From: Cyclobacteriaceae bacterium
GTDB taxonomy: Bacteria; Bacteroidota; Bacteroidia; Cytophagales; Cyclobacteriaceae
Direction of reading: 5' to 3'
NCBI GenBank assembly: GCA_043750575.1
Contig: JAYVBH010000009.1
Span: 48,664 to 112,663 of the forward strand
Length of the DNA: 64,000 bases
The stretch's first letter is position 1. Each line of letters starts with the position of its first letter. Below the pieces are notes generated by a model that worked only from the letters and a program-made list of their open reading frames with translations, was not told the DNA's origin and did not search any database. Shown in pieces: positions 13,116 through 63,203 of the stretch. A program made the position numbers and the translations under genes.

Positions 13116-13128
13116 AAAGGCAAAGGTT

Positions 13129-13655: not shown

Positions 13656-13661
13656 CAGACT

Positions 13662-14069: not shown

Positions 14070-14101
14070 ATGTGCGAATTTAGGGCAAGATTAGGGAAAA
14101 G

Positions 14102-14278
14102 AGCTACAAGCTGCAAGCTACAAGCTGCAAGCATGGCGTTGTGGTTGATTCAGACCAAGTTGTAAAGCCAACTGAAGCTATGTGGGACCTTCCTTTTGCC
14201 AAGTGCAAAGGCCCTGGCCACATGGCTAAGACTAGTCGGATTTGGTAGCCGCAAGCTTGCCGCTTGTAGCCTGTAGCC
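14102..14278. repeat. Inverted GCTACAA/GCTGCAA heptamer cassette, gene-less
   Basis: Left agctacaagctgcaagctacaagctgcaagc (14102-14132); right gcttgccgcttgtagcctgtagcc (14255-14278). Confidence 0.75.
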
Positions 14279-14340
14279 GGAAGCAACCTAGGTGACAATC
14301 CAAGCCGAATACGTAAATTTACCAAGCCAATTAATTTACT

Positions 14341-22969: not shown

Positions 22970-24892
22970 CTAGCTCAACTCGCTGAATCGCTGGGTGTCG
23001 AGCACTTCGTAGCGGCTGTAGTTGCTTTTGTACTCGGGGACGAGTTCCTTCATTAAAGCCACCATTTTCAGCTCGTTGCGGTCGTTGACAAGGTCGTGGA
23101 ACAGATCCACATACCGGTTGATCTCATCGTAGGAGTACTCCTGGACGCGGGCGATAAGGATCTTCTTGTGGTGCGTGGGGATGGTGTTCTCCTGGTTCGT
23201 GAGCAGTTCCTCAAACAACTTCTCTCCTTCTCTTAACCCCGTGAAATGAATCTCAATGTCGCGGTCGGGCTCGAGACCTGACAGCCAGATCATCTTCTTG
23301 GCGAGGTCAAGAATCTTCATGGACTTACCCATGTCAAAAATGAATATCTCACCCCCCTGCCCCATTGTACCGGCTTCAAGCACTAGCTGGCAAGCCTCTG
23401 GGATGGTCATGAAGAAACGCGTGATCTCCGGGTGCGTAACCGTTATCGGACCCCCTGCCTCAATCTGTTTCTTAAACAATGGGATAACCGAGCCGTTGGA
23501 TCCCAACACATTTCCAAAGCGAGTTGTGACAAAAGCCGTCCGGTGAGCCTTTCCGGTCGTGTAGTTATTTAAAGACTGAACATAGATTTCGGCGATGCGC
23601 TTTGAACAGCCCATCACATTGGTGGGGTTCACCGCCTTATCGGTGGAAATCATTACAAATTTCTGCACACCCGTTTCGGCAGAAATATCAGCCAGAATCT
23701 TGGTGCCAAGGATATTGCAGGCTACTGCCTCTGATGGATTGCTTTCCATCATCGGGACGTGCTTGTAGGCGGCAGCATGGTACACCAAATCCGGCTTCTG
23801 CTCTCTGAATATCGCGGCAATTCTCTCCTTGTTTGTGATGTCAACAAGAAAGATATTGATCTTGGCAGACGGCGCCAGGGCAACCATTTCCCGCTCGAGT
23901 TCATACAAAGCAGACTCTGCCTGATCAATCGCAATCACAGACTCCGGGTGATACTGAATGACCTGGCGGACCAATTCGCGGCCGATAGAACCAGCAGCCC
24001 CAGTAATACATATTCGCTTTCCCTTCAGGTCCCTTTCTACATTCTCTTTATTCAAACGGATGGCCTCCCTGCCCAGTAAGTCCTCAATGTTGATTTCCTT
24101 AATCTGGTTAAAGCTCAATTCACCTTTGGCCCACCGGTCAATTGGCGGTATCAGGCGTACACGGATCTGATGCTGAATACAAAGCTCTACCAGTTCATTC
24201 CGGCGTTCCGGGTCGATGTCCTTGGCCGCAATAACCAATTCGTCGAACGACCTATCTTTCAGCAAGGCTTCCAGTTGGACCTTGCCTGCATTATAAATCA
24301 TAACCCCGTCAAGCACTTTGCCGATCTTATCCGTATTGTCCTCCAGGAAGCCCATCACCCGCATTCGCTTTGAGGACTCGACGACATGACGGGTAATCAT
24401 TCCTGTATTGCCAGCCCCAAAAATTATAACCCTTGACCGCTTTAGCATTTGATCCTTGTAATAGGAGAAGATATACTTCACGAGGAGGCGATAATTGAAG
24501 AGCAAAAGAAATGACCCCAGGAAGCTAATCAATACGACGGAATACGGAACTGCGTATTGAAGCTTGTTGTAGGCATAGAAAAGATTGACCGATACAACCA
24601 GGGCCAGGTTCAACACGACCATAAACAATATCCTGGCTCCATCTTGTAAACCCGTATAGCGAATGATGCCTTTATAGCTTCCCGTGAGGAGGATGGAGAC
24701 TAGTCCGCAGAGCGAATAGATGAGTACACCCCGCTCGAGCCATTGCCCGGTGAGGTCGTTAAATGAAAAATTAAAGCGAAGTAGAAATCCCAGGAAAACT
24801 GAAAACGAAATGAAGGCAAGGTCTATGAAGATAATTACCCAGCGGGGCAATATGCGCAGATTGCGAACCAGATCAATCCACCAGCGGATCAC
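22970..24892 (-). CDS. Membrane-anchored UDP-GlcNAc 4,6-dehydratase (CapD/WbpM/PglF family)
   Basis: N-terminal TM helices, IFGAG, DLLGR, TGAAGSIG, HAAAYKHVP, ISTDKAVNPTNVMG, RFGNVLGSNGSV, GLREGEKLFEEL. Confidence 0.95.
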   Translation of the reverse strand: MIRWWIDLVRNLRILPRWVIIFIDLAFISFSVFLGFLLRFNFSFNDLTGQWLERGVLIYSLCGLVSILLTGSYKGIIRYTGLQDGARILFMVVLNLALVVSVNLFYAYNKLQYAVPYSVVLISFLGSFLLLFNYRLLVKYIFSYYKDQMLKRSRVIIFGAGNTGMITRHVVESSKRMRVMGFLEDNTDKIGKVLDGVMIYNAGKVQLEALLKDRSFDELVIAAKDIDPERRNELVELCIQHQIRVRLIPPIDRWAKGELSFNQIKEINIEDLLGREAIRLNKENVERDLKGKRICITGAAGSIGRELVRQVIQYHPESVIAIDQAESALYELEREMVALAPSAKINIFLVDITNKERIAAIFREQKPDLVYHAAAYKHVPMMESNPSEAVACNILGTKILADISAETGVQKFVMISTDKAVNPTNVMGCSKRIAEIYVQSLNNYTTGKAHRTAFVTTRFGNVLGSNGSVIPLFKKQIEAGGPITVTHPEITRFFMTIPEACQLVLEAGTMGQGGEIFIFDMGKSMKILDLAKKMIWLSGLEPDRDIEIHFTGLREGEKLFEELLTNQENTIPTHHKKILIARVQEYSYDEINRYVDLFHDLVNDRNELKMVALMKELVPEYKSNYSRYEVLDTQRFSELS

Positions 24893-25107
24893 TATTCTTT
24901 ATTTGATTTGTCCTTGCCAAGCATTCGCTTCAAACCAAGTAGTACTCCGCCCCCGATAAGAATTTCAATTCCCGTAATGGGCACGGCTGGTGGACAAGGT
25001 GGCTTAGGGCACGGCTTTCCGCCACCCCCCGGCTGAGCAGAACCCAAGAAAAAACTCAAGCAAAAAAATGCGGTAAGAAATAAAAGCCTCAAGAATTTCA
25101 TCTTCAT
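24892..25107 (-). CDS. PID-CTERM-like exosortase-target microprotein
   Basis: Signal peptide, QPGGGGKPCPKPPCPPA, VPITG, hydrophobic IEILIGGGVLLGL, basic KRMLGKDK tail; stop overlaps capD start. Confidence 0.75.
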   Translation of the reverse strand: MKMKFLRLLFLTAFFCLSFFLGSAQPGGGGKPCPKPPCPPAVPITGIEILIGGGVLLGLKRMLGKDKSNKE

Positions 25108-39687: not shown

Positions 39688-41154
39688 CTAAAATTGAAAA
39701 TAGATAAATTGACTGATTGGCCTCAGAAAAGTAAAGACGAGGATGATAATGAATGTGTAACGGACACAATTCAAACAGAAATACAGTGGTCCAATGCGTT
39801 TCAGTCTTTCCTCCAGGTAAGTGGTGAAAAAATAACTCAGAAGAAATAGCAAGACTAAGAGCGCTGCAATGATATAGACGTTCTCCCTCATGGTATAAAA
39901 CAGATAGTACCGGGGCACAAAAACCTTTCCCATCATCAAGAAGGTGTCTTTCAGATTTGCAGCCCTAAATGGGATCCAGCTAAGCATAGCCAGGGGCAAT
40001 ACCAATAACCACCCGACAAGGCGGGCTTCAAGGAACGGTATGCGCTTCTTTATCGGCCGCAATATGCGTTCCATGAAGATCATTGTCGCATGATATAGGC
40101 CCCAAAAGACAAACGTCCAATTCGCACCATGCCAGAGACCCATGATCCCCCATGTAAGAAACAGAGCGCCATTTTTTGTTTGCGTGCTTGTCGCCTCCAA
40201 ACCCTCCCCGATGCCACCCTTTCCCGTGGTCTTTGTTACCCTCACCCCGGACAGCGGCAGATAAAGGTAATCTCTTATCCAAGACGACAAGGAAATATGC
40301 CATCTCTTCCAAAAGTCCTTAAACGAGGAGGCGATATAGGGATAGTTAAAGTTTTCAGGGATGGTGATACCCATCAGCCTTGCGGCTCCGACGGCAATAT
40401 GAGAATAGGCTGAAAAATCAAAGTAGATCTGAAACCCAAAGAGAAAAGCCAGGGTCCACACATCTATCGCTGATAGCGTTGCGGCACTTACGGAAAAGCC
40501 CTCATCCACCAAGGGGCTAATGTTGTCTGCCAAAACAACTTTCAGGAACAATCCATACAGGATTCTCTTGATTCCATCCGTAACAAAATCCAGCTGAAAT
40601 GCCGGGCGCGTTTTCAATTGAACGAGGAGCTCAGAAGCGCGTTGAATGGGGCCCGCTACCAACTTGGGAAAAAACGTTACAAACAATGCATAGTCAACAA
40701 ACGTCTTCTCAGGTTTGATCAAACCACGATAGACGTCCACCGTATAGCTGATCGTTTCAAATGTGTAGAAGCTTATCCCGAAGGGCAACAATACATGGAG
40801 CAACGGGAACTGGTAATGAAAACCCAGGAGTTCCAACAATCCGTTCGTGTTCTCCGTGAAAAAATACAAATACTTGAAATAACATAGCAGGCCGAGGTTT
40901 ACAACCAGTGTAACCGCCAACAGGGCGTTCCGCCGCCGTTTATCAGTTGCAGCAGTATTCCCAATGGCAAGTGCGGTGTAATAATCCGTGAGCGCAGAAA
41001 TAAACATCACACTCAGGTACTCCCATTTCCAGAAACCATAAAATATGCAACTGACGATCAATAGCATCCACTTCTTCAATCGCAATGGAAGCGTCCAATA
41101 AAGGGCTACCACCAAAATGAGAAATACAATAAATGTTACTGAATTGAAAATCAC
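39688..41154 (-). CDS. MBOAT O-acyltransferase (AlgI/DltB family)
   Basis: LPFGISFYTF, FFPKLVAGPI.R, YFDFSAYS, ENFNYPY, FWKRWHISLS, GLWHGA. Confidence 0.95.
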   Translation of the reverse strand: MIFNSVTFIVFLILVVALYWTLPLRLKKWMLLIVSCIFYGFWKWEYLSVMFISALTDYYTALAIGNTAATDKRRRNALLAVTLVVNLGLLCYFKYLYFFTENTNGLLELLGFHYQFPLLHVLLPFGISFYTFETISYTVDVYRGLIKPEKTFVDYALFVTFFPKLVAGPIQRASELLVQLKTRPAFQLDFVTDGIKRILYGLFLKVVLADNISPLVDEGFSVSAATLSAIDVWTLAFLFGFQIYFDFSAYSHIAVGAARLMGITIPENFNYPYIASSFKDFWKRWHISLSSWIRDYLYLPLSGVRVTKTTGKGGIGEGLEATSTQTKNGALFLTWGIMGLWHGANWTFVFWGLYHATMIFMERILRPIKKRIPFLEARLVGWLLVLPLAMLSWIPFRAANLKDTFLMMGKVFVPRYYLFYTMRENVYIIAALLVLLFLLSYFFTTYLEERLKRIGPLYFCLNCVRYTFIIILVFTFLRPISQFIYFQF

Positions 41155-41155
41155 G

Positions 41156-42358
41156 CTACTTGTTGCTCATTCCCATCAATACATGCTGTAGTGAATCAGC
41201 CAAGATCTCATGCCCCCTGTATTGGAAATGCATGAAGTCAACTTCCCGCTTTGACATGAGATTGGTGGCCGCTTGAAAGCCCCATAAAGGGCCAGGAACA
41301 ATATTCTCATAATTTCGGAACTCCACATCAGCACCAGAATGCTGTGCAATTCGAACAACCGCATCCTTAAAATTCATGTATTCTTCGGGGGCATACGGAG
41401 GCGTGGTATCGGGACGGATTGGAGGGATATACAATAAGACCTTGTGTTTGTACTCTCTGCATTTGGTCAGTATCAACCTTAATGATTCCATATTGTCATC
41501 ATACCGCTGCGGTATCATTCTCCGGATGCTGTTGGCACCGACTCCAAACACTGTGTTGCGCAACCTATAGACCCAACTAAAAACATCTCCGCGCACATTT
41601 TGCCGATTGCTCCAGGCCAGGGAGTTCTCGGTCAGTTGGGCATTGAGGTATATCTCAGCCTTCTCTTGCAGGGTCTCTTTTAACGCCGCCAAATCATCGT
41701 CTTGTGCAGATGTCTTGCTGTTGGGATTGCTCGACCAATAATCGCGCAAGTTCTTGTTAATCTTCTGGGCTAGATGAGAAGAATCCCTTTCCACCTGATA
41801 ATTCTCATCGATTAACTTAGTAAAAAATACATTCCGGATACCATCTTCCCGCATGTCATCCATGAACAGAGGAATTACAATGATTTGCAGAGGTAGCCGG
41901 TCTTTCCAATACATATAGGAAAGGTAGAATTCCTGCAAGCCGGCATTGGGCAGGCTATTACCAAGTACTTCGGAGCTGTCATTGAGCGCATTTCTGAATA
42001 TCAATTCCAGGAAGTTAACCTCATCTTCCCGCTTTTGATTGATGCTATGCATCTGGGAGTTGCCCAGGAAAAGAGTAACCTTCTTTTCGCCCCTCGCTCT
42101 CCAACTATCAACAAACTCCTTCTCCTCTGCCCCGCTGATCCTGACAATATGGATTAACTTACCATTGCTATCCAGAGCTTGATAACTTGCTGTTTCTGTG
42201 CCCAAAGCTAAGTCCTCAAACTTCACAGTTCCGGCGAACCAAGTGGTGATAATCCAATACGCAAGCACAAACGCAAAGGAAAGTTCAATCAAAGGCGTGT
42301 ATCTTCTCATATGAATCCTAGTCCACAGTCTTCGCTGCTTCCCTTGAGTCATTGTCAT
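41156..42358 (-). CDS. Membrane-anchored periplasmic protein, possible SGNH-like (AlgJ/DltD-type) partner
   Basis: One N-terminal TM; FLGNSQ and DFMHF resemble SGNH blocks I and V; adjacent to MBOAT. Confidence 0.6.
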   Translation of the reverse strand: MTMTQGKQRRLWTRIHMRRYTPLIELSFAFVLAYWIITTWFAGTVKFEDLALGTETASYQALDSNGKLIHIVRISGAEEKEFVDSWRARGEKKVTLFLGNSQMHSINQKREDEVNFLELIFRNALNDSSEVLGNSLPNAGLQEFYLSYMYWKDRLPLQIIVIPLFMDDMREDGIRNVFFTKLIDENYQVERDSSHLAQKINKNLRDYWSSNPNSKTSAQDDDLAALKETLQEKAEIYLNAQLTENSLAWSNRQNVRGDVFSWVYRLRNTVFGVGANSIRRMIPQRYDDNMESLRLILTKCREYKHKVLLYIPPIRPDTTPPYAPEEYMNFKDAVVRIAQHSGADVEFRNYENIVPGPLWGFQAATNLMSKREVDFMHFQYRGHEILADSLQHVLMGMSNK

Positions 42359-51624: not shown

Positions 51625-52805
51625 GGCTTATATAATGAGATAACTTTCTCTAAGGAGAGTTTGTGGGAAATTTCTTGAAACTGCTCTGCAAAGCAATGGC
51701 TCGCAGTTGAAAAACTCCTCATTAAAGCCTTGTCATCACACAATCGAAGAATCTTTTTAGACAGGTCCTCAATATTACCCCAAGGAAATACAAATCCATT
51801 TTTTCCTTCCTGAACATCATCATTCTCACCATAACTCCCACATCGGTCACTGACTATGATAGGAAGACCCATATAAATTGCCTCACTGACAGCAATTGAA
51901 TGAGGCTCTACAGAGGCTGGGTGAACATAGATATCTGCCGTAGCATAATAAGAAGGCAGATCTTCAGGTGGAATGAAGCCCACAAAATGGACGCTGCTTG
52001 AACGTAATTGGCCGGCCTTCGTACGCAATTCTGCTAGCCTTGGCCCAGAACCAACCATTAAAAGTTGCAAAGTCAACCCTTGGCCTTCTAATTTGATCAA
52101 TGCATCGATGATGTGGTCCTGACTCTTCCAAGGAACCAACTTTCCAACAACAATCAATACTATATCCTCTATGCTGATACCAAGCTGCTTTCGAACACTC
52201 TTACGCAGGAAGTCTTTGTTTGCAAATGCAGTCTTATACAAATCAATGTCAATAGGAAAGTGCATCCTAATGAATTTGCGTTTTGGGACTCGGTAACGCT
52301 CATAGTATTCCTCATTCGCATTCCCAACCGTCAAGAAATGGTCAATGTGATAAAAATACCATGTCAAGAAAGGATACTTAACTATATCCCAGAATACTGA
52401 GTTTTCTTGTCTCCGTTCACTATCCGAAATATAAAGGATAGAAACGTCTCTCTTTCTCGCCCAGCGATAGGCTCTCCGCTGAACCTTCTGATAATATCCG
52501 TAGACTATTAGCAGGGAAGGAGCAAACTTGGTCAGCGCTGTATCAAGTGAAGGCGCATCCAAATCACGATTGGACGACAATACACTGTCTCCATTGAGAA
52601 ACTCATGATCAAAGGAATCAAGTCGAAGGTTTCCCCATGAGATCTCCTTTTGAAATAGCTCGTCATGGTACTTTCTAAAACCAAGCGCTGACGCAAAAAA
52701 CACCTTAAACTCAACGTCGCCATTTCCAGCAAAACTTGAGTACTGCGGACAAAAGTGTTGTATCGGATGTGACACAACCAAGGCAATTCTAACCTTTTCA
52801 CTCAT
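51621..52805 (-). CDS. Glycosyltransferase family 4
   Basis: SHPIQH, VGKLVPWK, EPHSIAVSEA, NGFVF. Confidence 0.9.
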   Translation of the reverse strand: MSEKVRIALVVSHPIQHFCPQYSSFAGNGDVEFKVFFASALGFRKYHDELFQKEISWGNLRLDSFDHEFLNGDSVLSSNRDLDAPSLDTALTKFAPSLLIVYGYYQKVQRRAYRWARKRDVSILYISDSERRQENSVFWDIVKYPFLTWYFYHIDHFLTVGNANEEYYERYRVPKRKFIRMHFPIDIDLYKTAFANKDFLRKSVRKQLGISIEDIVLIVVGKLVPWKSQDHIIDALIKLEGQGLTLQLLMVGSGPRLAELRTKAGQLRSSSVHFVGFIPPEDLPSYYATADIYVHPASVEPHSIAVSEAIYMGLPIIVSDRCGSYGENDDVQEGKNGFVFPWGNIEDLSKKILRLCDDKALMRSFSTASHCFAEQFQEISHKLSLEKVISLYKP

Positions 52806-53940
52806 TTATCAGTGCCTCAATCCGCATTAACTGTGACCCGTAAGTATTGTCACGCGCATAGGCTACCCTTCTTGCACGCAATTCATCGCTATTATAACTA
52901 AGCAATTTGCCTATTACTTCCGTGAAAAGTGCCGGTAAGGCGCGATTGCTATCGCGGTCAGGCGCCATCACAATCAAATCTGGACTATCACGATAAGTGG
53001 TAATGTTATTAGAGATAATCACTGAGCCCGATGCGAGGTACTCCATAACCTTGTGGTAGTTTGTTCCTTTACTCTGATCCTTAAGCACGTCATAACAGAT
53101 CAGAAAAGTATCCATTCTTTGGAGCGAAGTCGCAAGAACCTCTGTTGAAACAACGCCATGCAGAATTACGTTACCGTAGTTCTGCAGGGTCTTAACAAAT
53201 TCTCTTGCACCTTCATCATCGGCCCCACCAATATTGCTATCCTTGAATTGATAGCTACCCCAAAATTCGAACTGACACCCAGGATTGTCTTTGATAATCT
53301 GCAATAATGTAGTGCGGTCAATATCCGGTCTTAATAAATTGCCTGAAAAGCCAACCCGAACAGGACCCGTAGCATTGCGACGCCCATCATCCGAAATGAA
53401 AAAGTCCAATGTAACACCATGGTTGACAAAGTGACGTGGGCAACTGTATCCTTCGTACTTATCCAAAATCTCCTTTGTCACTGAAAAAATCACCTGCGCA
53501 CCTTCTGCGGCGTCAATGGCGGCACTATTTAAAGGTTCGTCTACAGGATGAAATATCTTGTAGACCTTTCGATCAAAAAAAGTTAAAGGGTAAGTGAAAC
53601 CGAGGTCAAAGGACCAAACAATATCGATGGGTGTTTTAAGTATGCTGAGGATACGTTTGATCTGAATCCTCATCAGCCCATGAAACATAGACATCAGATG
53701 AAACTTCAGAGCGTATGGAAAAAACAGGATGTGGTCAACAATGAACAAATTCTGCTGAACTTCCTGAATGCTAATCTCAGGGCACCGGATGCTGATCCTT
53801 TCCTGGTTTGGCGGATTTAGAAAGTAGACTGTATTGCCTAGCTTTGTCAATTCTCTGGCATAATGATGCTTCGACAAGGACATTGCACCCCAGGCCTGCG
53901 GAGAAAGAATGAGAATTGTACGATTCCTTAAATCAGGCAA
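52798..53940 (-). CDS. Putative glycosyltransferase (GT-B-like)
   Basis: SKHHYARELT, NHGV, GFSGNL, HKVMEYLASG; probable TTG start overlapping upstream stop. Confidence 0.7.
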   Translation of the reverse strand: MPDLRNRTILILSPQAWGAMSLSKHHYARELTKLGNTVYFLNPPNQERISIRCPEISIQEVQQNLFIVDHILFFPYALKFHLMSMFHGLMRIQIKRILSILKTPIDIVWSFDLGFTYPLTFFDRKVYKIFHPVDEPLNSAAIDAAEGAQVIFSVTKEILDKYEGYSCPRHFVNHGVTLDFFISDDGRRNATGPVRVGFSGNLLRPDIDRTTLLQIIKDNPGCQFEFWGSYQFKDSNIGGADDEGAREFVKTLQNYGNVILHGVVSTEVLATSLQRMDTFLICYDVLKDQSKGTNYHKVMEYLASGSVIISNNITTYRDSPDLIVMAPDRDSNRALPALFTEVIGKLLSYNSDELRARRVAYARDNTYGSQLMRIEALINE

Positions 53941-55045
53941 TGGAATGGTAGAAAGCTTTAATTGAACCAGCCACATGGTCAATCATCTCGTGGGTCAGTT
54001 CAGGATACATTGGCAGAGAAAGGATCTCAGACTGAAGCTTAGTAGCTATCGGGAAGTCTGATGGACTGTGCCCCAAATATCTATATGCTTCTAAATTAGG
54101 TAGTGCCGTTGGATAGTGAATGGCTGTTTCTATTCCTTGCGTCTTCAAATACCGCATCAGCCGATCGCGTTGTTTGGCCTTGATTACATACAAATGAAAT
54201 GTGTGTTTCGTGACCGGCCTAACCAGAGGCACCTCCATTTCCTCCACATCATTGAGGGCCTTCGAATACCGTTCCGCGTGATGGATTCTTTGCTCGGTCC
54301 ACGAAAGAATATGAGGCAACTTGGCTGATAGAATTGCCGCCTGCAATCCATCCATCCTGCTATTAACTCCCTCCATTCTGTGCTCATGCTTTTTCAGGGC
54401 ACCATGCCTCGCATACATTCTGAATTTTTCCGCCAAACTATCATTATTCGTAATAATGCATCCAGCGTCGCCATACGCCCCAAGGTTCTTCCCAGGATAA
54501 AAGCTAAAAGAACCCGCAACACCTGAGAGTCCGGCCCTAACACCATTGTACTCTGAAAAATGAGCCTGGGCACAGTCTTCAATCAAGTAAATGTTATGCT
54601 TCTGACAAATGGATTTGATCATATTCATTTCACACATCTGCCCATGCAGATGAACGACAATCAACGCTTTTGTCTTTACAGTAATCTTACTCTCAATCAG
54701 GTTTTCATCGACACTATAATAGCAAGGGCTAGCATCGACAAAAACAGGTTTTGCGCCTGTCTGCGTTATCGTTTCTGAACTGGAAATCCAGCTATTGGCT
54801 ACCGTAACTACCTCATCCCCAAATCCAATACCGAGCATCTTCATGATAATATACAGCGAATCAGTTCCGTTGGCACAGGAAATCACGTGCTGAACACCGT
54901 ATAGCCTCGCAAACCCTTCCTCAAATTCGTTTACATAATGACCTCCAATAAACGCAGTATCCTCAATTACACTGGCAATTGCTCGATCAATATCACTCTT
55001 TATCTGCTGGTACTGAGCCGAAAGATCTACAAAGGGAACGTTCAT
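53933..55045 (-). CDS. DegT-family aminotransferase (WbpE-like)
   Basis: PFVDL, ANGTD, EDCAQAH, SFYPGKNLGAYGDAG, GVNSRMDGLQAAIL, SLPMYP. Confidence 0.93.
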   Translation of the reverse strand: MNVPFVDLSAQYQQIKSDIDRAIASVIEDTAFIGGHYVNEFEEGFARLYGVQHVISCANGTDSLYIIMKMLGIGFGDEVVTVANSWISSSETITQTGAKPVFVDASPCYYSVDENLIESKITVKTKALIVVHLHGQMCEMNMIKSICQKHNIYLIEDCAQAHFSEYNGVRAGLSGVAGSFSFYPGKNLGAYGDAGCIITNNDSLAEKFRMYARHGALKKHEHRMEGVNSRMDGLQAAILSAKLPHILSWTEQRIHHAERYSKALNDVEEMEVPLVRPVTKHTFHLYVIKAKQRDRLMRYLKTQGIETAIHYPTALPNLEAYRYLGHSPSDFPIATKLQSEILSLPMYPELTHEMIDHVAGSIKAFYHSIA

Positions 55046-55065
55046 TGTATTTGGTCTTGAAGACC

Positions 55066-55530
55066 CTATAATCGTCTGATCAGTTGAGCTGGATTTCCAG
55101 CGTAAACACCTGAAAGGTCGATATCCCTCGTTACAACTGCTCCAGCACCAATCACAACATGATCACATATGCGCACCGGCAGAATTGTTGCATTCGATCC
55201 GATTGAAACCCTGTTACCAATAGTTGTAGACTTCCATAGCGACTGGTCGCCTCCCGCCGGTGATCCCTTCGCAAAGAGATCATTGATGAACATGACTCCA
55301 TGACCCACAAAACAATTCTCACCAATGGCAACTTTACTGCAAATAAATGTATGCGATTGAACTTTCGAATGGCGACCAATAATAACACCAGCCTGAATCT
55401 CCACAAATGGACCTATAAAACACCCATCGCCAATAGAGCACTCATAAAGGTTTACAGGCTCAACGACTTTTACGTCATGTCCAAAAGCAACATCCCTGAT
55501 TTGGGTTTTCAGAATTTGGGGCTCGTTCAT
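55066..55530 (-). CDS. Hexapeptide N-acyltransferase (WbpD-like)
   Basis: NLYECSIGDGCFIGPFVEIQ, QSHTFIC, GHGVMFIND, YAGNPA. Confidence 0.88.
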   Translation of the reverse strand: MNEPQILKTQIRDVAFGHDVKVVEPVNLYECSIGDGCFIGPFVEIQAGVIIGRHSKVQSHTFICSKVAIGENCFVGHGVMFINDLFAKGSPAGGDQSLWKSTTIGNRVSIGSNATILPVRICDHVVIGAGAVVTRDIDLSGVYAGNPAQLIRRL

Positions 55531-56552
55531 ATACGCACCGCAGCCTTATAAATCTTTTCAATGATCTCCACTGTTTTCAATCCTTCAAATGAATTTGTTG
55601 TAATAGAGGCATTGTGTTGCAATACTTCTATAATGTTGTCATATACTTTATCATGATTGCTCATGGAGCCCACATAATTACCATAGTTGTTAGGCTTGTT
55701 TCCCTCTGCCAAATTTTCAATACGGTATCCATCTATGCACTGATATTCCAGTTCGTTAAGATATTGGCCACCGATCTTTACCGTGCCTTTCTCTCCAAAA
55801 AGCGTTAGTGAGCCCTCCATATTCTTCTCAAAACTGTTCACTGTATAGTTCATCGTACCAATAGTGCCACTATGAAATTCCATAATCACCACTCCAGTAT
55901 CCTCGAATTCGATGATATTTTTATGGTGATAGTTACCCATGTAAGCTTGCACATTCCGGACATCCCCCAGGAACCAATACAACAAATCAACAAAGTGACT
56001 GAATTGTGTGTATAGTGTTCCACCATCCATTTTCAAGGTGCCTTTCCAGGAGTTGTGATAGTAGTCTGGGTTACGGTTCCAAAAGCATGAGAGTTGAAAA
56101 TTCATGATTTTTCCCAGCCTACCTTCGTCAATTAATCGCTTCACAGCAGCAACAGGAGGATTATACCGATTTTGCTTGATCGCAAACAAACGCCTATTGG
56201 CCCTTTCCGCAGCTTGTATCATGCGACCACAATCATATGAGGAAATAGCCATGGGTTTTTCACACAATGCATGGAATCCTCCCTGCAAAACTCTGATTGA
56301 ATGCTCAGCATGTAATCCATTCGGCGAGCAAATGGCAACCACATCCAGGTCAACAACCCCCGTCAAGAAAGTATCAATATCATAATATGCCTTCGCATTG
56401 TATTTAGTTGCCAGGTCGTCTGCTTTTTCCCGTACGACATCACATACAGCAACCAATTCTCCTTTACAATGAATGTGCTCGGCATGACGTTGTGCTATTC
56501 TACCGCATCCGATAATTCCGAATTTTAAACGATTGTGAGGCTCCCCCATCAT
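55527..56552 (-). CDS. Gfo/Idh/MocA oxidoreductase (WbpB/WlbA-like)
   Basis: IIGCGRIAQRH, CSPNGLH, CEKPMA, QNRYNP, GGTLYTQFSH. Confidence 0.92.
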   Translation of the reverse strand: MMGEPHNRLKFGIIGCGRIAQRHAEHIHCKGELVAVCDVVREKADDLATKYNAKAYYDIDTFLTGVVDLDVVAICSPNGLHAEHSIRVLQGGFHALCEKPMAISSYDCGRMIQAAERANRRLFAIKQNRYNPPVAAVKRLIDEGRLGKIMNFQLSCFWNRNPDYYHNSWKGTLKMDGGTLYTQFSHFVDLLYWFLGDVRNVQAYMGNYHHKNIIEFEDTGVVIMEFHSGTIGTMNYTVNSFEKNMEGSLTLFGEKGTVKIGGQYLNELEYQCIDGYRIENLAEGNKPNNYGNYVGSMSNHDKVYDNIIEVLQHNASITTNSFEGLKTVEIIEKIYKAAVRI

Positions 56553-56553: not shown

Positions 56554-57726
56554 TTAAGTATGTTTTAATAGGTAACGAAATTTTTTGGTACGCTGAAGAA
56601 ACCGCATATACATCTGCTTCTTCCAGGTGTCCGTCTCAAAGTCAAAATGGCTTCGTGGTGTGGTCTCCATGATCGCAAGAAATTCATCTGCCTGAAGGCC
56701 CCATTTTTTCAGGATGTATTCCTTATCCCGCCTCAACGTTTCAGAATCGTAAAGGGGAAGACTCAATTCATACAAAGCCTCTTCGCGCGTTATCTGTCCC
56801 GAACAAATCAGTGTTGAAAGATGAGCTTTCCGTTTATCTATTTTGAATTTCTCAGGTAAGATATAAGCCTGATAGAATTTTGTAAATGTAGATTCATAGT
56901 GCTTTCCACCATAGTCACGCCAACCCAATTCACGGCTGATCAAGGTCTTGATCTCCTTCTTGTTATATGGAACATAGTTCAAAATGGAAATAGGCGTTAG
57001 CTTAAGGGCAGCTGAATAATACACATATCGCTTGAAGTCCATATAGGGATAAGTCTTTAACTTAACCTTTCCATACTGATTGTGAATACTTTGTAGATTG
57101 TCAAAATCCATCTTTGAATAAAGCCACAAGGGCGGCATAATGTACTCCGTGACAACGTTGGTTCCACTGATGATATAGCTGATGCTATGCTTTCGTGCCA
57201 GTCTGTACATCGTTGCAAAAATGGCGTGATCGGATACAACTTCAATATCGACCACAGAAGCTTTGAAATAGGCAAGCTGAATATCCCTGAACTCTTCCCA
57301 ATCAATCACCAGTGTAAAAAGGTCTATGTCAAGTTTGCGAATTACATTTTCGATATTTTGAACGGCCAATTCTGAGTTCCACCCATTATCAAGGTGAACA
57401 GCCAAAGGTCGTAACCCATGTTTCTTCACGAGATAAGCCACATACGTGCTGTCCACACCCCCGCTCAACCCAATCAGGCAATCGTATGCTTTTCCCCTGC
57501 CCTTTCGTTTAATGGCTGATACCAACTCTGCCAGGCGTGACTGGCCAGCTTTACCGACAAGGACACTCTCAATCTCCGCCTTTTTGTATTCATGGACATA
57601 ATTGCATACTCCACTTTCGTCAAATTCAATACTTGGGTCAGCAATATTGTCCATCACGGTCAGTGAGCATTGCCTGTAAAGAGGATCGCTGATATCCAAA
57701 ATCACTTTCGACTTAAATTTTCTCAA
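56554..57726 (-). CDS. N-acetyl sugar amidotransferase (WbpG/WbuX-like PP-loop ATPase)
   Basis: YDCLIGLSGGVDST, HLDNGWNSELA, SGTN, YGGKHYES, ITREEAL. Confidence 0.92.
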   Translation of the reverse strand: MRKFKSKVILDISDPLYRQCSLTVMDNIADPSIEFDESGVCNYVHEYKKAEIESVLVGKAGQSRLAELVSAIKRKGRGKAYDCLIGLSGGVDSTYVAYLVKKHGLRPLAVHLDNGWNSELAVQNIENVIRKLDIDLFTLVIDWEEFRDIQLAYFKASVVDIEVVSDHAIFATMYRLARKHSISYIISGTNVVTEYIMPPLWLYSKMDFDNLQSIHNQYGKVKLKTYPYMDFKRYVYYSAALKLTPISILNYVPYNKKEIKTLISRELGWRDYGGKHYESTFTKFYQAYILPEKFKIDKRKAHLSTLICSGQITREEALYELSLPLYDSETLRRDKEYILKKWGLQADEFLAIMETTPRSHFDFETDTWKKQMYMRFLQRTKKFRYLLKHT

Positions 57727-58480
57727 AAAGACCTTCCCGTAACTCCTCCTGAGAAGGATAGCTAATCAATACAGCCCGATGAGGGCCTTTGAAAACAAAC
57801 ATACTTCCAGCAGCAACTGCCGAGGCGCCATTGGCAATGGCGGATTCAAAATCAGCAATACAGGAAGCCCCGCCAAGGGCAACTACCGGAATATCAACTC
57901 CATGAGCTACCAATCTCAACAGGTCCAAGTCATAACCTCCAAGAGTTCCATCACGCTCGATTGAGTTTAGAATGATTTCACCCGCACCCATCCGTTCTGC
58001 TTCTCGAGCATATTCGAGTGGGCCCTTGCCCGTATTAACAGATCCGTTACAAGTGTACGTTTGATACTTACCCCAAATATTCTTTCGCACATCTATGGAT
58101 ACAACCACACTTTGGCTACCTACGTAGTCTGAACACACTCGCACCAATGAAGGCTTTTCGTTAAACGCTGAATTGATAACGACCTTTTCTACTCCTGATG
58201 AAATTAAAGCCTGAACTTGCTCAACACTGGTAATTCCTCCTCCATAAGCTATTGGCATAAATGCCTCACTTGCGATCTCCCGTATCCGATCTAAGTCAGG
58301 AGCTCGCTGAGCAATAGTCGCAGATAAATCGAGAATAACCAGTTCATCAACCTCCTTCTCGTTAAATATTCTTACTGCATTGATAGGATCACCAACATAT
58401 TTTTGATTTTTGAACTGAGTCGATTTAACCAGGCCAGTGTCCTTGATTAGCAATGTTGGAATAACACGCACTCTCCGCAT
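57713..58480 (-). CDS. HisF-like cyclase paralogue of glycan clusters
   Basis: RVIPTLL, YVGDPINAVRIFNEKEVDEL, YGGGI, SIERDGT.GYD, AAGSMFVF. Confidence 0.9.
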   Translation of the reverse strand: MRRVRVIPTLLIKDTGLVKSTQFKNQKYVGDPINAVRIFNEKEVDELVILDLSATIAQRAPDLDRIREIASEAFMPIAYGGGITSVEQVQALISSGVEKVVINSAFNEKPSLVRVCSDYVGSQSVVVSIDVRKNIWGKYQTYTCNGSVNTGKGPLEYAREAERMGAGEIILNSIERDGTLGGYDLDLLRLVAHGVDIPVVALGGASCIADFESAIANGASAVAAGSMFVFKGPHRAVLISYPSQEELREGLFEKI

Positions 58481-59098
58481 TTAGAATTTTTCAATAAAAT
58501 TAGCGAACAGTTTCATGCCGAATTTATGGCTCTTCTCAGGATGAAACTGAATGCCCATAATATTGCCCTCTTCAACACCAGCCACAAATGAATATCCATG
58601 ATGTGCCACCATGCTTGCGGCTCCCTCATCCTCGAGAATCGCATGGTATGAATGAACAAAATAGAATCGAGGAATAATAATACCCTTCAATAGCCTAGAA
58701 GGTTTAACCGCCTCTACTTCAGTCCATCCCATATGAGGTATCTTCAATTCCTGGGGCAACCTACTCCGGTCAAATCGAACATTTCTGCCTTTGATCCATC
58801 CAAATCCAGGAAGACGACCTTCCTCACTGCCCTCTAGGAGCATCTGCATTCCAACACATAGTCCCAGAATGGGAACTTTGAGGCGTATCACTTGATTCTC
58901 AATAACACCAAACAAATCAGAGTCTTTTAATTTCCCTATACATGAATCAAATGCACCAACACCAGGCAAGATCAGCCTCGTCGCTTCCGCAATCTGCTGT
59001 GAATCCTTTGCCAAGTAACTGTCAATACCCGCCTTATCGAGCATATTTTTAATTGAGCCCACGTTCCCAACACCATAATCAATTATGCCCAACATCAA
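58481..59098 (-). CDS. HisH-like glutamine amidotransferase of glycan clusters
   Basis: DYGVGN, LPGVGAF, GLCVGMQ, PHMGW, YFVHSY, QFHPEKS. Confidence 0.92.
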   Translation of the reverse strand: MMLGIIDYGVGNVGSIKNMLDKAGIDSYLAKDSQQIAEATRLILPGVGAFDSCIGKLKDSDLFGVIENQVIRLKVPILGLCVGMQMLLEGSEEGRLPGFGWIKGRNVRFDRSRLPQELKIPHMGWTEVEAVKPSRLLKGIIIPRFYFVHSYHAILEDEGAASMVAHHGYSFVAGVEEGNIMGIQFHPEKSHKFGMKLFANFIEKF

Positions 59099-59772
59099 AA
59101 ATTAAGATAATCATCTCGAAACTTATCAAACTCCGATGACCGAATAAATCCATTGAATTCATGCCTATTGCTGTACCTAAGAAATTTTTTCTTCACTTCC
59201 TTATTTGCGCTGTAATCCGCATGCATTCTAGCTGGATTACCACTGATTACGCAATAGCCTTCCGGAAACGAACATGCAACAATAGAACCAGCCGCTACTG
59301 TAGTGAAATCACCCAAGACAACCCCAGGAAGAATTACCGACCCCATTCCGATTCTGCAGTATTCTCCAATTTGAATTTCATTTATCACATGCTTTCGGAT
59401 ATCGAGCATGAAATGGTTAGAACTAATTATTCCAACATTTGCAGCAATTTGTGTGTAATCTCCAATCCAAACCCTACCCATAGCCTGAATGTAACACCCC
59501 GGTGAAATTCCAGGTGCTGCATCAATACCAACTATCACATTCCTCCATGACCCAGTAATGACTGACGTCGGGTGCATCGGCCAGTAACACCCCGAATTGG
59601 GGCCAAGTACCTGATACTTAAACCACTGCTTAAAACTAATTGGACTCTCATTTTCTCTTGTTTCATCCAATGGCGAGAAAAATGGTACAAATTTCACCAC
59701 AGCTGTATAAAGGCGACCATGGAAAAGAAAAGCATACACTCTACTAAAGAACCTTAGAAAAACAAGTATCAT
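59095..59772 (-). CDS. Hexapeptide-repeat O-acyltransferase
   Basis: YWPMH, PGISPGCYIQ, IISSNH, VILPGVVLG, ISGNPA. Confidence 0.8.
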   Translation of the reverse strand: MILVFLRFFSRVYAFLFHGRLYTAVVKFVPFFSPLDETRENESPISFKQWFKYQVLGPNSGCYWPMHPTSVITGSWRNVIVGIDAAPGISPGCYIQAMGRVWIGDYTQIAANVGIISSNHFMLDIRKHVINEIQIGEYCRIGMGSVILPGVVLGDFTTVAAGSIVACSFPEGYCVISGNPARMHADYSANKEVKKKFLRYSNRHEFNGFIRSSEFDKFRDDYLNF

Positions 59773-60020
59773 TCGCTTGGCCTCGCCTTTAGTACATATT
59801 CACAATAATCTCCAACACATTGTGCATCAAAAATAAAGTCAATTGAGAATGTAATCTTGAATTCTCTTTCCATCGCAGAGATTAAGAACAAATTCGTTAT
59901 AGAGGTCCAGTTGGCTACAGAGTCTGGACTTGATTCATAAGTAATCTCAAGGCTCTCATCTCCTAACTCTTGCCTGAAAATTCTCTCCACTCTCTTGAGA
60001 ATCTCTTCCATTGAATTCAT
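59769..60020 (-). CDS. Acyl/aminoacyl carrier protein
   Basis: 83 aa, acidic; NWTSITNL (WDS-type Ppant site variant), AMEREFKITF. Confidence 0.8.
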   Translation of the reverse strand: MNSMEEILKRVERIFRQELGDESLEITYESSPDSVANWTSITNLFLISAMEREFKITFSIDFIFDAQCVGDYCEYVLKARPSE

Positions 60021-60023
60021 AAA

Positions 60024-60770
60024 TCATTCTGTTTTAGTATAAAGTATATATGAACTAGTCTCCTTAAATCCAAGTGAAAGATATAGTGGCTTACCAATTC
60101 TTGTCGATTGTAGATAGCAACTTTCAATTTTCAAACCATTCAATATTCTAAGGCAATGAATTAATAATGTCTTGCCGAACCCTTGCGCGCGATACTCCTT
60201 CTTGACACAAACCATATAGATACCTGCATTCCCATCCTCATCAAAATATAACATCGAAGCCCCAACCAACTCACCTCGGACTTTGAGACCAATAAGCCTA
60301 GATGAATTCATTCCTAATTCATTGAAGATATTTGAATCTAACTTTCTAGAGCTAAAAAGACATTGACTAACTAAACTGGTCCATTCAGGCAAATCAAGAG
60401 AGCCCTCAACAAATTCTGCCACCCTGTCTCCAGCGCAGATAGCATTGCTAACACTAAAATCTTTCAGTGACATACCAGTAGTTCGATCCGCTGGAATAAA
60501 TCCCTTTGCTCTTAGTGCAGCCTCGTGATTTGCACTGCCAAGTACCAATGGATTCATTCGAGCATTGCGCAAATCCTGAAGAATACCTTCAACTGTATCC
60601 AACCCTATACCAATTGAAGAAGTAATGAAGGCAAGATTAGGCCAAGAGGAATTCGAATGCTTAACAATACTGTAAAGCTCTTCTTCATAAAATTCCCCCC
60701 TCCACAAGCCCCCAATTCTTCTATAAAGCGAAAATAGATTTCGCTGATTTAATAGAACATCTGAAATCAT
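60024..60770 (-). CDS. GNAT-family N-acyltransferase
   Basis: GIYMVCVKKEYRAQGFGK, LQST..G..LY..LGF. Confidence 0.85.
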   Translation of the reverse strand: MISDVLLNQRNLFSLYRRIGGLWRGEFYEEELYSIVKHSNSSWPNLAFITSSIGIGLDTVEGILQDLRNARMNPLVLGSANHEAALRAKGFIPADRTTGMSLKDFSVSNAICAGDRVAEFVEGSLDLPEWTSLVSQCLFSSRKLDSNIFNELGMNSSRLIGLKVRGELVGASMLYFDEDGNAGIYMVCVKKEYRAQGFGKTLLIHCLRILNGLKIESCYLQSTRIGKPLYLSLGFKETSSYILYTKTE

Positions 60771-62287
60771 CCAATCATACTAAGTATTTGTCTCCTATCA
60801 ACTTTTCCACTAGTGCCTATTGGAAACTCACCTATTGATGCTATTCTTGCAGGGACCATATAGTATGGCAATTTCTTCTTAAGAAAACTCAATACCTTTG
60901 CGGTGTCAACTAGCGTAGTGGATTCAAGCACTAGCACAATTTCCGAAGTCCCATAACGATTACTCACCACTGTAGCACAATTGAGATCAAACTCTTGCCT
61001 AACCAAATATTCAATCTCGCTTAACTCAACTCGATACCCCTGGATTTTTACTTGGTTATCTATTCTGCCACAGTAGTATAGGTCTCCAACCTCATCCTTG
61101 TAGCACAAATCGCCAGTTCGGTAAAAACGGACTAATTTATTGCCTATGGTAAAAACTAAAAATGCAACGGCATTCTTTTCCGGGCAATTCAAGTAGCCGC
61201 TAGTAAGCTGGGGTCCGCTAATTAGCAACTCTCCCTTCTCATATTCTGCCACTGGATTCCCATATTCATTAATAATTAGAGATGTGGCCCCGCCAAATAG
61301 CTTACCAATTGACAGCATACCGTTGTAATTCTTAACCCTATAGGAGTCAACAGTATAACAAGAAACCCAAATTGTAGTTTCCGTTGGGCCATACAAATTC
61401 CTTATCATCGCATTCGGAACGACTTGTCGCCAAGCTTCCAACAAGTCCACTTGAGTCGCCTCTGCCGTTAATAGACAATTTCGAACCCTGGAAAACTTCA
61501 ATTGACTTAGATATGGTTTTAATAAGGCAATTAAAGAGGGCACGATTGTTATTATCGTAAGCTCGTACTGCATAATAATCTTTGCAGCATTCAAATATTT
61601 AATTCCATGAGGTGGCACCGTGTAAACTTGTGCTCCAGAAAGAAGCGGAAGTAGAAAACAAGCAATTGATACATCAAATGTCAAATCAAACATTTGAAGA
61701 CACCTGTCATTCCCATTAATTGGAATAGCTAAAAGATTCCAGGAATCCACGAAGGCACTTACGTTTCCATATGAAATTGGAACGCCTTTAGGACTGCCAG
61801 TACTACCCGAGGTAAACAGAATGTACAACTCCGAATCTGAACCCCGCCCAATTATCTCAAAATCCCCATCCTCCATCTCCACATGGTGCCTTGTGTCAAT
61901 AAACCTAACAGAAGGGGGCAAATTGAGGGAATTATCTGAGGTTGAGTCCAATATATAACTGATATCAGCTTGGTCAATAATTTCGAGATTTCGGCTCAAA
62001 GGGAAATCTTGATTAATGGGAACATAAGAGTTACCCGAAAACCAACAAGCTAGGAATGAAGCATAGGTGTCAATTGCATTTCTTGTGACAATACCTAATC
62101 TAGCACCGCCTTTAGGGTATTCTTTTACAATTTTAGCCTGAATGCCAACAGTCCTTTTACGTAAATCTCCGTAGCTATAGTAATTCCCATCTATACAAAA
62201 TGCTACATTACTCTCATGTTTACTCAAAGATTCTCTAAGTTTTTCAAATAAAGCTAAAGGTTCAGAACCAACATTCATTCTTCCCAT
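60767..62287 (-). CDS. Stand-alone amino-acid adenylation enzyme (DltA-like)
   Basis: YILFTSGSTGSPKGV, FDVS, NLYGPTETT, GELLI, YRTGDL, GRIDNQVKIQGYRVEL, SGKVDR. Confidence 0.93.
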   Translation of the reverse strand: MGRMNVGSEPLALFEKLRESLSKHESNVAFCIDGNYYSYGDLRKRTVGIQAKIVKEYPKGGARLGIVTRNAIDTYASFLACWFSGNSYVPINQDFPLSRNLEIIDQADISYILDSTSDNSLNLPPSVRFIDTRHHVEMEDGDFEIIGRGSDSELYILFTSGSTGSPKGVPISYGNVSAFVDSWNLLAIPINGNDRCLQMFDLTFDVSIACFLLPLLSGAQVYTVPPHGIKYLNAAKIIMQYELTIITIVPSLIALLKPYLSQLKFSRVRNCLLTAEATQVDLLEAWRQVVPNAMIRNLYGPTETTIWVSCYTVDSYRVKNYNGMLSIGKLFGGATSLIINEYGNPVAEYEKGELLISGPQLTSGYLNCPEKNAVAFLVFTIGNKLVRFYRTGDLCYKDEVGDLYYCGRIDNQVKIQGYRVELSEIEYLVRQEFDLNCATVVSNRYGTSEIVLVLESTTLVDTAKVLSFLKKKLPYYMVPARIASIGEFPIGTSGKVDRRQILSMIG

Positions 62288-62348: not shown

Positions 62349-63203
62349 TCAATAAATTCTGCCCTTCCAATCAGTCTGAAAAAGAAATGTAACCGCTTCA
62401 GCTACTGCGCTAAACTTAAGTCTAATTGCATCCTTAGTTATTTGTCGAATCAATATGGCCCTTTCACTGGCTATTAATTTGAGCCGGCAAGGAAGCGGCA
62501 GAGGACATGATTTATGCAAGAGAAAGGCAATGGTGATCGAGAGATATGTAAAGCGATACTTCCCAAAATCATTCATCTCCTGTGACAGATGCTCTCTATA
62601 CCAAACCATTCCATCAGGCATAAGCACAACTCTATTTGTTTGCCCAAGTCGATGCCACATTTCAAAATCCCCCGCCATTCGAATATTCTTGAATCCTCCT
62701 AATAAATGAAATACATCACGCTTTACTATTGATGACAATGGTGCCTTATGAAATAAGCCATGGTTCAAATAGTGATACTCATACGCCTGCTTTGGTGATA
62801 AATCAAAAGGGAATGTCTTTTCTTTATTTGGAAAAAGTGAGCACAAACCCCAGGTAGCTTCAGGAAATCTCTCCATCATTGAAACCATTAATTCCAAGCC
62901 CCAAGGGTAGATCAAATCATCAGCATCCACATATTTCAAGTACTTTCCTGAGGCATAGGAGGCTGACACATTTCGATTTGGGTAGTCTCCAACGTTTTCA
63001 ACATTAACATAAACCTTCACCCTTCTATCCCTCGCCTCGTAAGACCTCGCAATTTCAACAGTTCTATCTTTGGAGCAATCATCAACAATAATCAGTTCCA
63101 AATTCGTATAAGTTGAGGCCAATACACTCTCAATTGCTTCCGCAACATACTTTTCACGGTTATAAGCCGTCATTAAAACACTCACTAGTGGCTGCTCTTT
63201 CAC
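62349..63203 (-). CDS. Glycosyltransferase family 2
   Basis: VSVLMTAYN, IIVDDCSKD, YVDADD, AGDFEMW. Confidence 0.92.
   Translation of the reverse strand: MKEQPLVSVLMTAYNREKYVAEAIESVLASTYTNLELIIVDDCSKDRTVEIARSYEARDRRVKVYVNVENVGDYPNRNVSASYASGKYLKYVDADDLIYPWGLELMVSMMERFPEATWGLCSLFPNKEKTFPFDLSPKQAYEYHYLNHGLFHKAPLSSIVKRDVFHLLGGFKNIRMAGDFEMWHRLGQTNRVVLMPDGMVWYREHLSQEMNDFGKYRFTYLSITIAFLLHKSCPLPLPCRLKLIASERAILIRQITKDAIRLKFSAVAEAVTFLFQTDWKGRIY

Follow-up and report, generated by a model that had tools for sequence, protein, structure and literature searches.

N-acyl-aminoacyl groups on amino sugars recur in bacterial surface glycans, and the literature searches made here returned no described gene set that installs them. 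The closest described systems decorate glycans in related ways. In the Dlt system of teichoic acid D-alanylation (DltA, DltC, DltB and DltD), a stand-alone adenylation enzyme of ~500 amino acids (aa) loads a small dedicated carrier, and a surface polymer is decorated with an amino acid whose amine stays free. In the O-antigen cluster of Vibrio cholerae O1, the rfbK-O genes (tetronate on perosamine) comprise an AMP-forming ligase, a carrier and an acetyltransferase-like enzyme proposed to N-acylate the amino sugar. The AlmEFG system of V. cholerae places glycine on lipid A by means of an adenylation enzyme for small amino acids (AlmE, which ligates glycine), a carrier and a cytoplasmic-face acyltransferase (AlmG, the lipid A-modifying enzyme) (PMC4278540). 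In Flavobacterium psychrophilum, WfpG, a left-handed beta-helix (LbH) enzyme homologous to PglD, is predicted to move an acyl group from a dedicated carrier, WfpD, onto UDP-Qui2NAc4N (PMC6519341). In Porphyromonas gingivalis and Tannerella forsythia, deacetylation by VimE is followed by VimA adding Ser or Gly to a uronic acid derived from the WbpB/E/D pathway, and the resulting ‘linking sugars’ (2-N-seryl- or 2-N-glycyl-3-N-acetyl-hexuronic acid, or the amide) anchor type IX cargo (PMC7468200). Here, we describe a four-gene cassette on the minus strand (59095-62287) of a 64,000-nucleotide stretch of contig JAYVBH010000009.1 from a Cyclobacteriaceae bacterium; this whole stretch is called the window. 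The cassette encodes, in order, a stand-alone adenylation enzyme of the nonribosomal peptide synthetase (NRPS) type, a tandem GNAT (Gcn5-related N-acetyltransferase), a carrier protein and a hexapeptide-repeat acyltransferase of the LbH type. It is conserved and uncharacterised, but varies an established mode of glycan decoration. Literature searches on adenylation enzymes or carriers in O-antigen, on acetamidino and alanyl groups, on Bacteroidetes DltA, on polysaccharide FkbH and on Pcryo_0619 returned no study of the cassette and no experimental work on it.

The rfbK-O set differs from the cassette in that its acyl group is a hydroxy acid made with extra reductases, and it includes neither a GNAT nor an adenylation (A) domain of the amino-acid type. 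With Dlt, the cassette shares the stand-alone adenylation enzyme and its small carrier, and sister A domains in Bacteroidota sit in true Dlt-like operons. Unlike Dlt, it holds no membrane-bound O-acyltransferase (MBOAT) and no DltD; a soluble cytoplasmic LbH enzyme is the predicted transferase, and the GNAT would neutralise the amine that Dlt leaves free. Judged by the family models and the operon partners, the cassette fails both DltA and DltB/DltD membership and is not a Dlt system. The likeness to AlmEFG extends to its Gram-negative setting and to AlmE itself (4oxi), the second-best solved match in the specificity region of the adenylation enzyme. However, the cassette has an LbH transferase, a polysaccharide or sugar target instead of lipid A, and an added GNAT; no AlmG-like enzyme was seen among the genes scanned here.

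Within Bacteroidota, the closest precedent is WfpC-G, where a dedicated carrier and an LbH enzyme in an O-polysaccharide locus are likewise predicted to acylate an amino sugar. There, ketosynthases and a reductase build a dihydroxyhexanoyl group and the LbH enzyme is of the PglD type (PMC6519341), whereas here an amino-acid adenylation enzyme acts as the loader, a GNAT is added and the LbH enzyme is of the maltose-acetyltransferase/WbbJ type. The Wbp/Vim pathway belongs to the same phylum, modifies a WbpB/E/D product with Ser or Gly and finds a further parallel in the AsnB-type amidotransferase of our locus. In that pathway the amino acid is added by VimA, a FemAB-like enzyme, whereas here an adenylation enzyme and a carrier are present. 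The VimA model (TIGR03019) has no match in the 100%-complete genome; no deacetylase of carbohydrate esterase family 4 (CE4, the VimE type) lies in the locus, and the genome’s single PF01522 gene is on another contig. Moreover, cargo could not attach if the amine is capped, as it probably is here. On these model searches, the cassette is not the VimA/VimE route.

On a narrow balance of probability, we favour a pathway in which a small amino acid is placed on the carrier, N-acetylated by the GNAT and then attached within the cytoplasm, through the LbH enzyme, to a sugar that is probably a 2,3-diamino sugar. The adenylation enzyme, judging by its intact motifs, would activate the amino acid with ATP; Gly, Ala or a Ser-like residue would be the candidates. 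The amino acid would then be loaded as a thioester on Ser40 of the carrier, after phosphopantetheinylation, presumably by the genome’s single phosphopantetheinyl transferase (PPTase) of Sfp length. Using acetyl-coenzyme A (acetyl-CoA), the tandem GNAT may N-acetylate the alpha-amine, either on the carrier or after transfer, as its co-inheritance and fold suggest. The LbH enzyme would move the acyl group from carrier to sugar, a role in which its use of the carrier is backed by a loader swap and a complex prediction. Synteny suggests that the acceptor is most probably an amino group on a 2,3-diamino-2,3-dideoxy-hexose or hexuronic acid that the adjacent WbpB/E genes would produce. WbuX, HisH and HisF would turn another N-acetyl group of this sugar into an acetamidino group, and the glycan would end up with an N-acetyl-aminoacyl side chain. 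The cassette is a compact four-gene candidate with a soluble transferase. The swap of loaders, with the carrier-LbH pair kept, suggests that the system is modular and that the loader determines the side chain. If this holds, such modularity would help to infer glycan chemistry from genome sequences and would be useful in glycoengineering. The cassette also borders, in Bacteroidota, on the anchoring of surface proteins to aminoacylated diamino-uronic acids.

The four genes keep their order across loci and form one unit. An open reading frame check returned four real frames, exactly where a preliminary description of this DNA, made from its letters, had placed them. Three junctions (adenylation enzyme/GNAT, carrier/LbH and LbH/HisH) are 4-bp overlaps of the ATGA/TGATG type, and GNAT and carrier are parted by a 3-nt gap; the cassette genes are therefore translationally coupled and continue into the HisH-like gene. 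The same order of adenylation enzyme, GNAT, carrier and LbH enzyme recurs in seven other metagenomic loci, eight with the window (L005, L006, L008, L094, L095, L096 and one further contig; A-domain identity 44-48%). Sizes in these seven are similar throughout (GNAT ~250 aa, carrier ~80 aa, LbH ~224 aa). The LbH enzyme is the best conserved part across the cassette loci (58-64% identity) and the GNAT the least (24-36%). Moreover, an amidotransferase gene of the WbuX, HisH or AsnB type directly follows the LbH gene in 9/9 loci, and WbpB/D/E-like genes (35-80% identity) lie near the cassette in most cassette loci. An Acidobacteriota metagenome-assembled genome (MAG) has the same four parts beside Wza, Wzz and a family 2 glycosyltransferase (GT2), its carrier (W-D-S) being on the opposite strand. 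The preliminary description’s view of one cluster acting together thus gains support from eight loci of identical gene order.

Relatives of the adenylation enzyme are numerous, with more than 100 at 42-50% identity, mostly from Bacteroidota metagenomes. A search for A-domain loci with universal motifs was swamped by generic NRPS A domains, and L010 and L011 alone were useful from it. Among 401 sampled Bacteroidota genomes, the cassette was found only in the window’s own, and four others hold more distant A-domain relatives. With one genome in 401 bearing it, the cassette is a patchy, strain-variable glycan module.

Evidence on how the cassette may work comes from loci in which the loader is replaced. 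In genome G063, a block consists of Wzt, an FkbH-type protein (587 aa; PF21211, 204.5 bits), a carrier (81 aa), an LbH enzyme 46% identical to that of the window, and WbuX; it has neither the adenylation enzyme nor the GNAT. In polyketide pathways, FkbH enzymes charge carrier proteins with a glyceryl unit, and the G063 block probably makes a glyceroyl-type side chain through the same carrier-LbH pair. The loader changes and the carrier-LbH-WbuX core stays, which argues for the LbH enzyme as a carrier-dependent transferase. In the same way, a GNAT that is present with the amino-acid loader and absent with FkbH fits an enzyme that caps the alpha-amine. The N-acylation proposed in the preliminary description is therefore consistent with the GNAT travelling with the adenylation enzyme; its placing of that step on the carrier becomes one of two alternatives, beside acetylation after transfer. 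A further arrangement is found in L097 (genome G391, 9007-14623), where an adenylation enzyme and a carrier stand beside a formyltransferase and a priming sugar transferase, with flanking proteins of 383 and 349 aa that have no family. There, the formyltransferase would be an alternative N-cap in place of the GNAT. As an observation of gene order, the FkbH-carrier-LbH-WbuX block of G063 (contig C1, L115 7750-11590) lies between two Wzt ABC-transporter genes.

The adenylation enzyme matches PF00501 at 184.8 bits and the amino acid adenylation domain model TIGR01733 at 295.6 bits, against a cut-off of 317.4, and it is the sole enzyme of its type in the genome. As had been described, it is a stand-alone A domain in which all core motifs A1-A10 can be read (including SGSTGSPKG, FDVS, NLYGPTE, YRTGDL, GRIDNQVKIQGYRVELSEIE, LPYYMVP and SGKVDR). 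Both Asp205 of FDVS and the A10 Lys495 of SGKVDR are invariant in 26/26 relatives. We take Asp205 to correspond to GrsA Asp235, the partner of the substrate’s alpha-amino group in NRPS A domains. With these two residues invariant and the motifs complete, the claim that an amino acid is activated is supported, on sequence grounds, insofar as the substrate bears an amino group. The label ‘DltA-like’ describes the architecture well but not the family. Solved DltA structures match at E ~1e-47, and yet both DltA equivalog models are missed by a wide margin (TIGR01734, 231.1 bits against 559.85; NF003417, 246.5 against 476).

Which amino acid would be used can be narrowed from the specificity code. 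This was read by motif anchors with GrsA numbering and checked only against the 1amu match ranges, which agree with the mapping 205=235 and 306=330. The code so obtained is DVATLTLIWK. Applied to the L097 enzyme, the same method gives DATKIGHVCK, which resembles published Asp/Asn codes, and this indicates that the motif-anchor method gives sensible output. Positions 322, 330 and 331 hold the bulky residues Leu, Ile and Trp, which points to a small side chain. Among solved domains, FscH and EntF come nearest in the specificity region, followed by AlmE, and the codes extracted for FscH and EntF read as the Ser code. In a search with the full-length enzyme, the domain of LgrA that scores best is its second A domain, which activates Gly. 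Altogether, a substrate such as Gly, Ala or a Ser-like residue is likely but unproven.

The tandem GNAT matches PF00583 at 38.8 bits, and Pfam matches likewise bear out that a GNAT and a hexapeptide transferase are adjacent in this cluster. Its N-terminal half is GNAT-like and its C-terminal half is a GNAT with the R-x-x-G-x-G motif (R194-A-Q-G197-F-G199), in which G197 and G199 are invariant across seven cassette GNATs. Across 96 aligned sequences, Tyr230 does not vary and G197 is kept in at least 90%. The AlphaFold2 (AF2) model, with a predicted local distance difference test (pLDDT) value of 95.2, is that of a tandem GNAT. By fold, the closest structures are acetyl-CoA-using tandem GNATs (4ius, VipF, the glucosamine N-acetyltransferase 5kf1, MshD and WecD), and aminoacyl-tRNA transferases of this fold rank lower. 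MshD acetylates the amine of cysteinyl-glucosamine, which would be a close chemical analogy to the role proposed here. A homologous-protein search with the GNAT as query returned only the query itself; relatives came from a profile search, which gave 238 representatives at E <1e-30 with full-length coverage.

Two observations concern the outskirts of this family. A tandem GNAT fused to a phospholipase D (PLD)-like nuclease domain lies at 8001-9659 of L101, beside MmeI-like and DNA methylase genes. The tandem GNAT-PLD-like fusion P0237 was considered as a Rosetta-stone lead and set aside, its restriction/defence-like context being uninformative for glycans; another distant member, P0260, stands in an unrelated context too.

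The carrier matches PF00550 at 20.9 bits (cut-off 20.8), and its attachment site reads N-W-T-S-I. The preliminary description read W-T-S here in place of W-D-S and called the carrier atypical. The reading is correct, although less weight attaches to it than was given. When ten related carriers are aligned, W38 and S40 never vary; between them, seven carriers have D, two have T (that of the window and one from a Dlt-like operon) and one has E. This variation makes W-T-S an ordinary, tolerated variant that does not mark the carrier as special or dead. The genome holds one PPTase gene of Sfp length (a 221-aa frame) and three carrier proteins in all.

The LbH enzyme matches PF00132 at 44.3 bits. 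Its His120 is invariant in 11 sequences and aligns with the His of the A-T-H motif of the maltose acetyltransferase 3hjj, which is the catalytic His. Matches to the LpxA and LpxD models are weak, with no sequence membership, and the monomer model is of medium quality (pLDDT 74.6). We predicted the complex of the LbH trimer with the carrier in three runs, which scored 0.73, 0.00 and 0.68 (contact agreement at least 0%, partner pLDDT at least 76). The median of 0.68 compares with 0.01 for the best control. This level was attained by 58 of 80 solved complexes and by 2 of 110 mismatched pairs, a calibration that holds only roughly here, where own alignments and a trimer were used. Moreover, solved LpxA/LpxD-ACP (acyl carrier protein) complexes exist, and the pass may partly reflect likeness to them. 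In the predicted interface, Ser40-41 and helices II/III of the carrier face two subunits: in one, the loop 119-129 around His120, and in its neighbour, residues 175-198. A basic C-terminal segment, 187-197, is kept in 7/7 cassette LbH enzymes, is 2 residues shorter in the FkbH-linked one and is deleted in two LbH paralogues that have no adjoining carrier gene. The prediction favours binding of carrier and LbH enzyme without demonstrating it. Taken with the FkbH loader swap, it lends support, for the LbH enzyme, to the earlier suggestion that a transferase takes the acyl group from the carrier.

Several observations weigh against this pathway. The specificity code fits no canonical code, and the family splits into two code types. 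In sequence, the LbH enzyme is nearest to O-acetyltransferases (maltose, galactoside), and its best fold matches are one N-acetyltransferase (Pcryo_0619) and several O-acetyltransferases (maltose), so that the acceptor may be an amine or a hydroxyl. One in three of the complex runs scored 0.00. Twelve sampled genomes without this adenylation enzyme hold LbH relatives at 40-50% identity, and at least one of these relatives (in L116, 40% identity) has no carrier gene nearby; carrier use is therefore typical of a subgroup and not of the family. Tandem GNATs in the wider family have no fixed tie to glycan loci, distant members standing in unrelated contexts, and the cassette GNAT could use the carrier’s phosphopantetheine arm in place of CoA. 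Finally, the WbpD-like acetyltransferase in the locus would compete for the 3-amino group.

Among the alternatives, the one that fares best, although we consider it unlikely, leaves the amino acid uncapped. That is, the LbH enzyme would transfer a free amino acid to the diamino sugar and the GNAT would acetylate something else, e.g. a sugar amine; structures that match the tandem-GNAT fold do include sugar-amine acetyltransferases. This would yield an aminoacyl-diamino-uronic acid whose alpha-amine is free, an analogue, made independently of VimA and VimE, of the Wbp/Vim linking sugar that is amide-bonded to type IX cargo. Those linking sugars come from the WbpB/E/D product (PMC7468200). The operon has WbpB/D/E-like genes and an AsnB-type amidotransferase, and the missing VimA match would leave room for such an analogue. 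A type IX cargo gene and a PID-CTERM microprotein do stand beside this kind of locus in the window (24892-25107) and in L005, but such a link is seen in only 2/8 loci. Moreover, the only CE4 deacetylase is away from the locus, and a GNAT that is co-inherited with the adenylation enzyme and absent with FkbH is better explained as the amino-acid cap. The more far-reaching proposal that the cassette is a second, VimA/VimE-independent route to an aminoacylated 2,3-diamino-uronic acid, some of it with a free alpha-amine, which would serve as the linking sugar for type IX-secreted or exosortase-F-sorted proteins encoded nearby, strikes us as quite improbable.

A shade less probable than the free amine is a pathway in which the GNAT itself acts as the transferase, as has been proposed for VimA, carrying the amino acid from the carrier (or the adenylate) onto the sugar amine, and the LbH enzyme is an ordinary O-acetyltransferase that uses acetyl-CoA, as most of its family do. 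Some aminoacyl transferases, such as MprF and Sba18/Sbb17, do have a tandem GNAT fold. L011, from a Bacteroidales MAG, holds side by side a CE4 polysaccharide deacetylase, a related adenylation enzyme (35% identity) and a tandem GNAT that shares the conserved W-P-N motif (9038-12218), next to gldB and with no carrier or LbH gene in the cluster; by analogy, this layout recalls VimE/VimA plus an adenylation enzyme. On the other hand, the carrier-LbH pair persists without the GNAT in G063, and the complex prediction sets Ser40 of the carrier at the active-site loop of the LbH enzyme. In the window’s GNAT, the motif that binds the CoA pyrophosphate is also intact, and the structures closest to its fold are acetyl-CoA enzymes.

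We give very little credence to a Dlt-like route, in which the aminoacyl-carrier would feed an MBOAT (39688-41154), 18 kb downstream in the same operon, that attaches the amino acid to the glycan as an ester outside the cytoplasm, in the manner of DltB with D-alanine. Relatives of the adenylation enzyme with 38-40% identity do occur in operons of a carrier, an MBOAT, a DltD-like or unknown partner and the adenylation enzyme (L098, genome G127, 9626-13858; L099, genome G289, 9611-13731), which are true Dlt-like systems in two Bacteroidota genomes. The window’s MBOAT is 32% identical to theirs and scores 186.6 bits on the DltB model. Yet both the DltA and the DltB model remain far below their cut-offs. 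The specificity codes point the same way: the cassette enzymes show two types, DVA[TSAC]xTLIWK and DVSQITFIYK, and the Dlt-like clade reads differently. The MBOAT as main route was rejected on two further grounds, namely that no MBOAT lies within 10 kb in any of six other cassette loci and that the partner protein of the window’s MBOAT has no similarity to the partners in L098 or L097. Just as improbable is the activation of another carboxylate (a hydroxy acid or sugar acid) beside a GNAT and an LbH enzyme that are merely syntenic acetyltransferases: the code does match no published amino-acid code and TIGR01733 falls just below its cut-off, but the Asp that pairs with the alpha-amino group never varies, the nearest solved domains activate Ser or Gly (FscH and EntF by codes that read as the Ser code, and AlmE by its glycine substrate), and the fixed gene order with overlapping stop and start codons argues for one pathway.

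The setting of the cassette is that of an ABC-transporter-type surface polysaccharide operon in a Bacteroidota genome. Its start lies beyond the window’s end (in L004), with genes for a NusG/UpxY-like protein, Wza, a Wzc-like protein, an AsnB-type amidotransferase, Wzm, Wzt with a Wzt_C domain and a 190-aa LbH protein. Within the window, it continues with an FkbM methyltransferase, the GT2 gene, the four cassette genes and the genes listed after them in the table, up to the 394-aa protein; more glycosyltransferases follow and, far further down, the MBOAT with its partner and a carbamoyltransferase. The G+C content of the cassette operon is ~0.40, against 0.48 in the rest of the window.

Table 1. 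The cassette and its flanking genes in the window, with the evidence for each assignment.
Feature	Position	Strand	Evidence
Adenylation enzyme P0001, stand-alone NRPS-type, 506 aa	60767-62287	-	PF00501 and TIGR01733 matches; motifs; Asp205 and Lys495
Tandem GNAT P0002, 248 aa	60024-60770	-	PF00583, PF13508, PF13673; alignments; AF2 model; fold matches
Carrier protein P0003, 83 aa, pI 4.4, attachment site W38-T39-S40	59769-60020	-	PF00550
Hexapeptide-repeat (LbH) acyltransferase P0004, 225 aa, maltose-acetyltransferase/WbbJ-like type, invariant His120	59095-59772	-	PF00132, PDB sequence matches
HisH-like	58481-59098	-	Amidotransferase set member
HisF2/WbuZ	57713-58480	-	Amidotransferase set member
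WbuX	56554-57726	-	Amidotransferase set member
WbpB-like oxidoreductase	55527-56552	-	Pfam/NCBIfam matches
WbpD-like LbH acetyltransferase	55066-55530	-	Pfam/NCBIfam matches
WbpE-like aminotransferase	53933-55045	-	Pfam/NCBIfam matches
Conserved 394-aa protein, no clear family	52798-53982	-	Pfam only 18.9 bits, weak Glyco_trans_1_2
GT2 glycosyltransferase directly upstream of the adenylation gene	62349-63203	-	PF00535, 109.6 bits

The HisH-like, HisF2/WbuZ and WbuX genes (56554-59098) are, by their family models, an N-acetyl-sugar amidotransferase set of the kind that forms acetamidino groups; their scores all exceed the cut-offs (NF038364, 350 against 310; TIGR03573, 296.8 against 203.2; TIGR01855, 213.6 against 105.4). 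The WbpB/D/E-like genes (53933-56552) are the probable source of a 2,3-diamino sugar acceptor. Homologues of the 394-aa protein occur in 6/6 of the other cassette loci compared (28-53% identity), and this protein may be the transferase for the modified sugar. In addition, L006, L094 and L095 each have a homologue of the GT2 glycosyltransferase (40-57% identity) immediately upstream of the adenylation gene.

A second LbH gene is found directly after Wzt and before the FkbM methyltransferase in L004 (724-1296), L006 (1998-2642) and L095 (1520-2131), and this enzyme may be part of a chain-end cap that is read by the C-terminal domain of Wzt. The partner of the window’s MBOAT (41156-42358), which has no family, has a 32%-identical homologue at 18506-19615 of L116 (genome G195). 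The same locus contains an LbH relative with no carrier gene. In L005 (1-1119), a gene for a type IX-secreted peptidase and then one for a 66-aa PID-CTERM microprotein lie directly upstream of the polysaccharide locus that bears the cassette.

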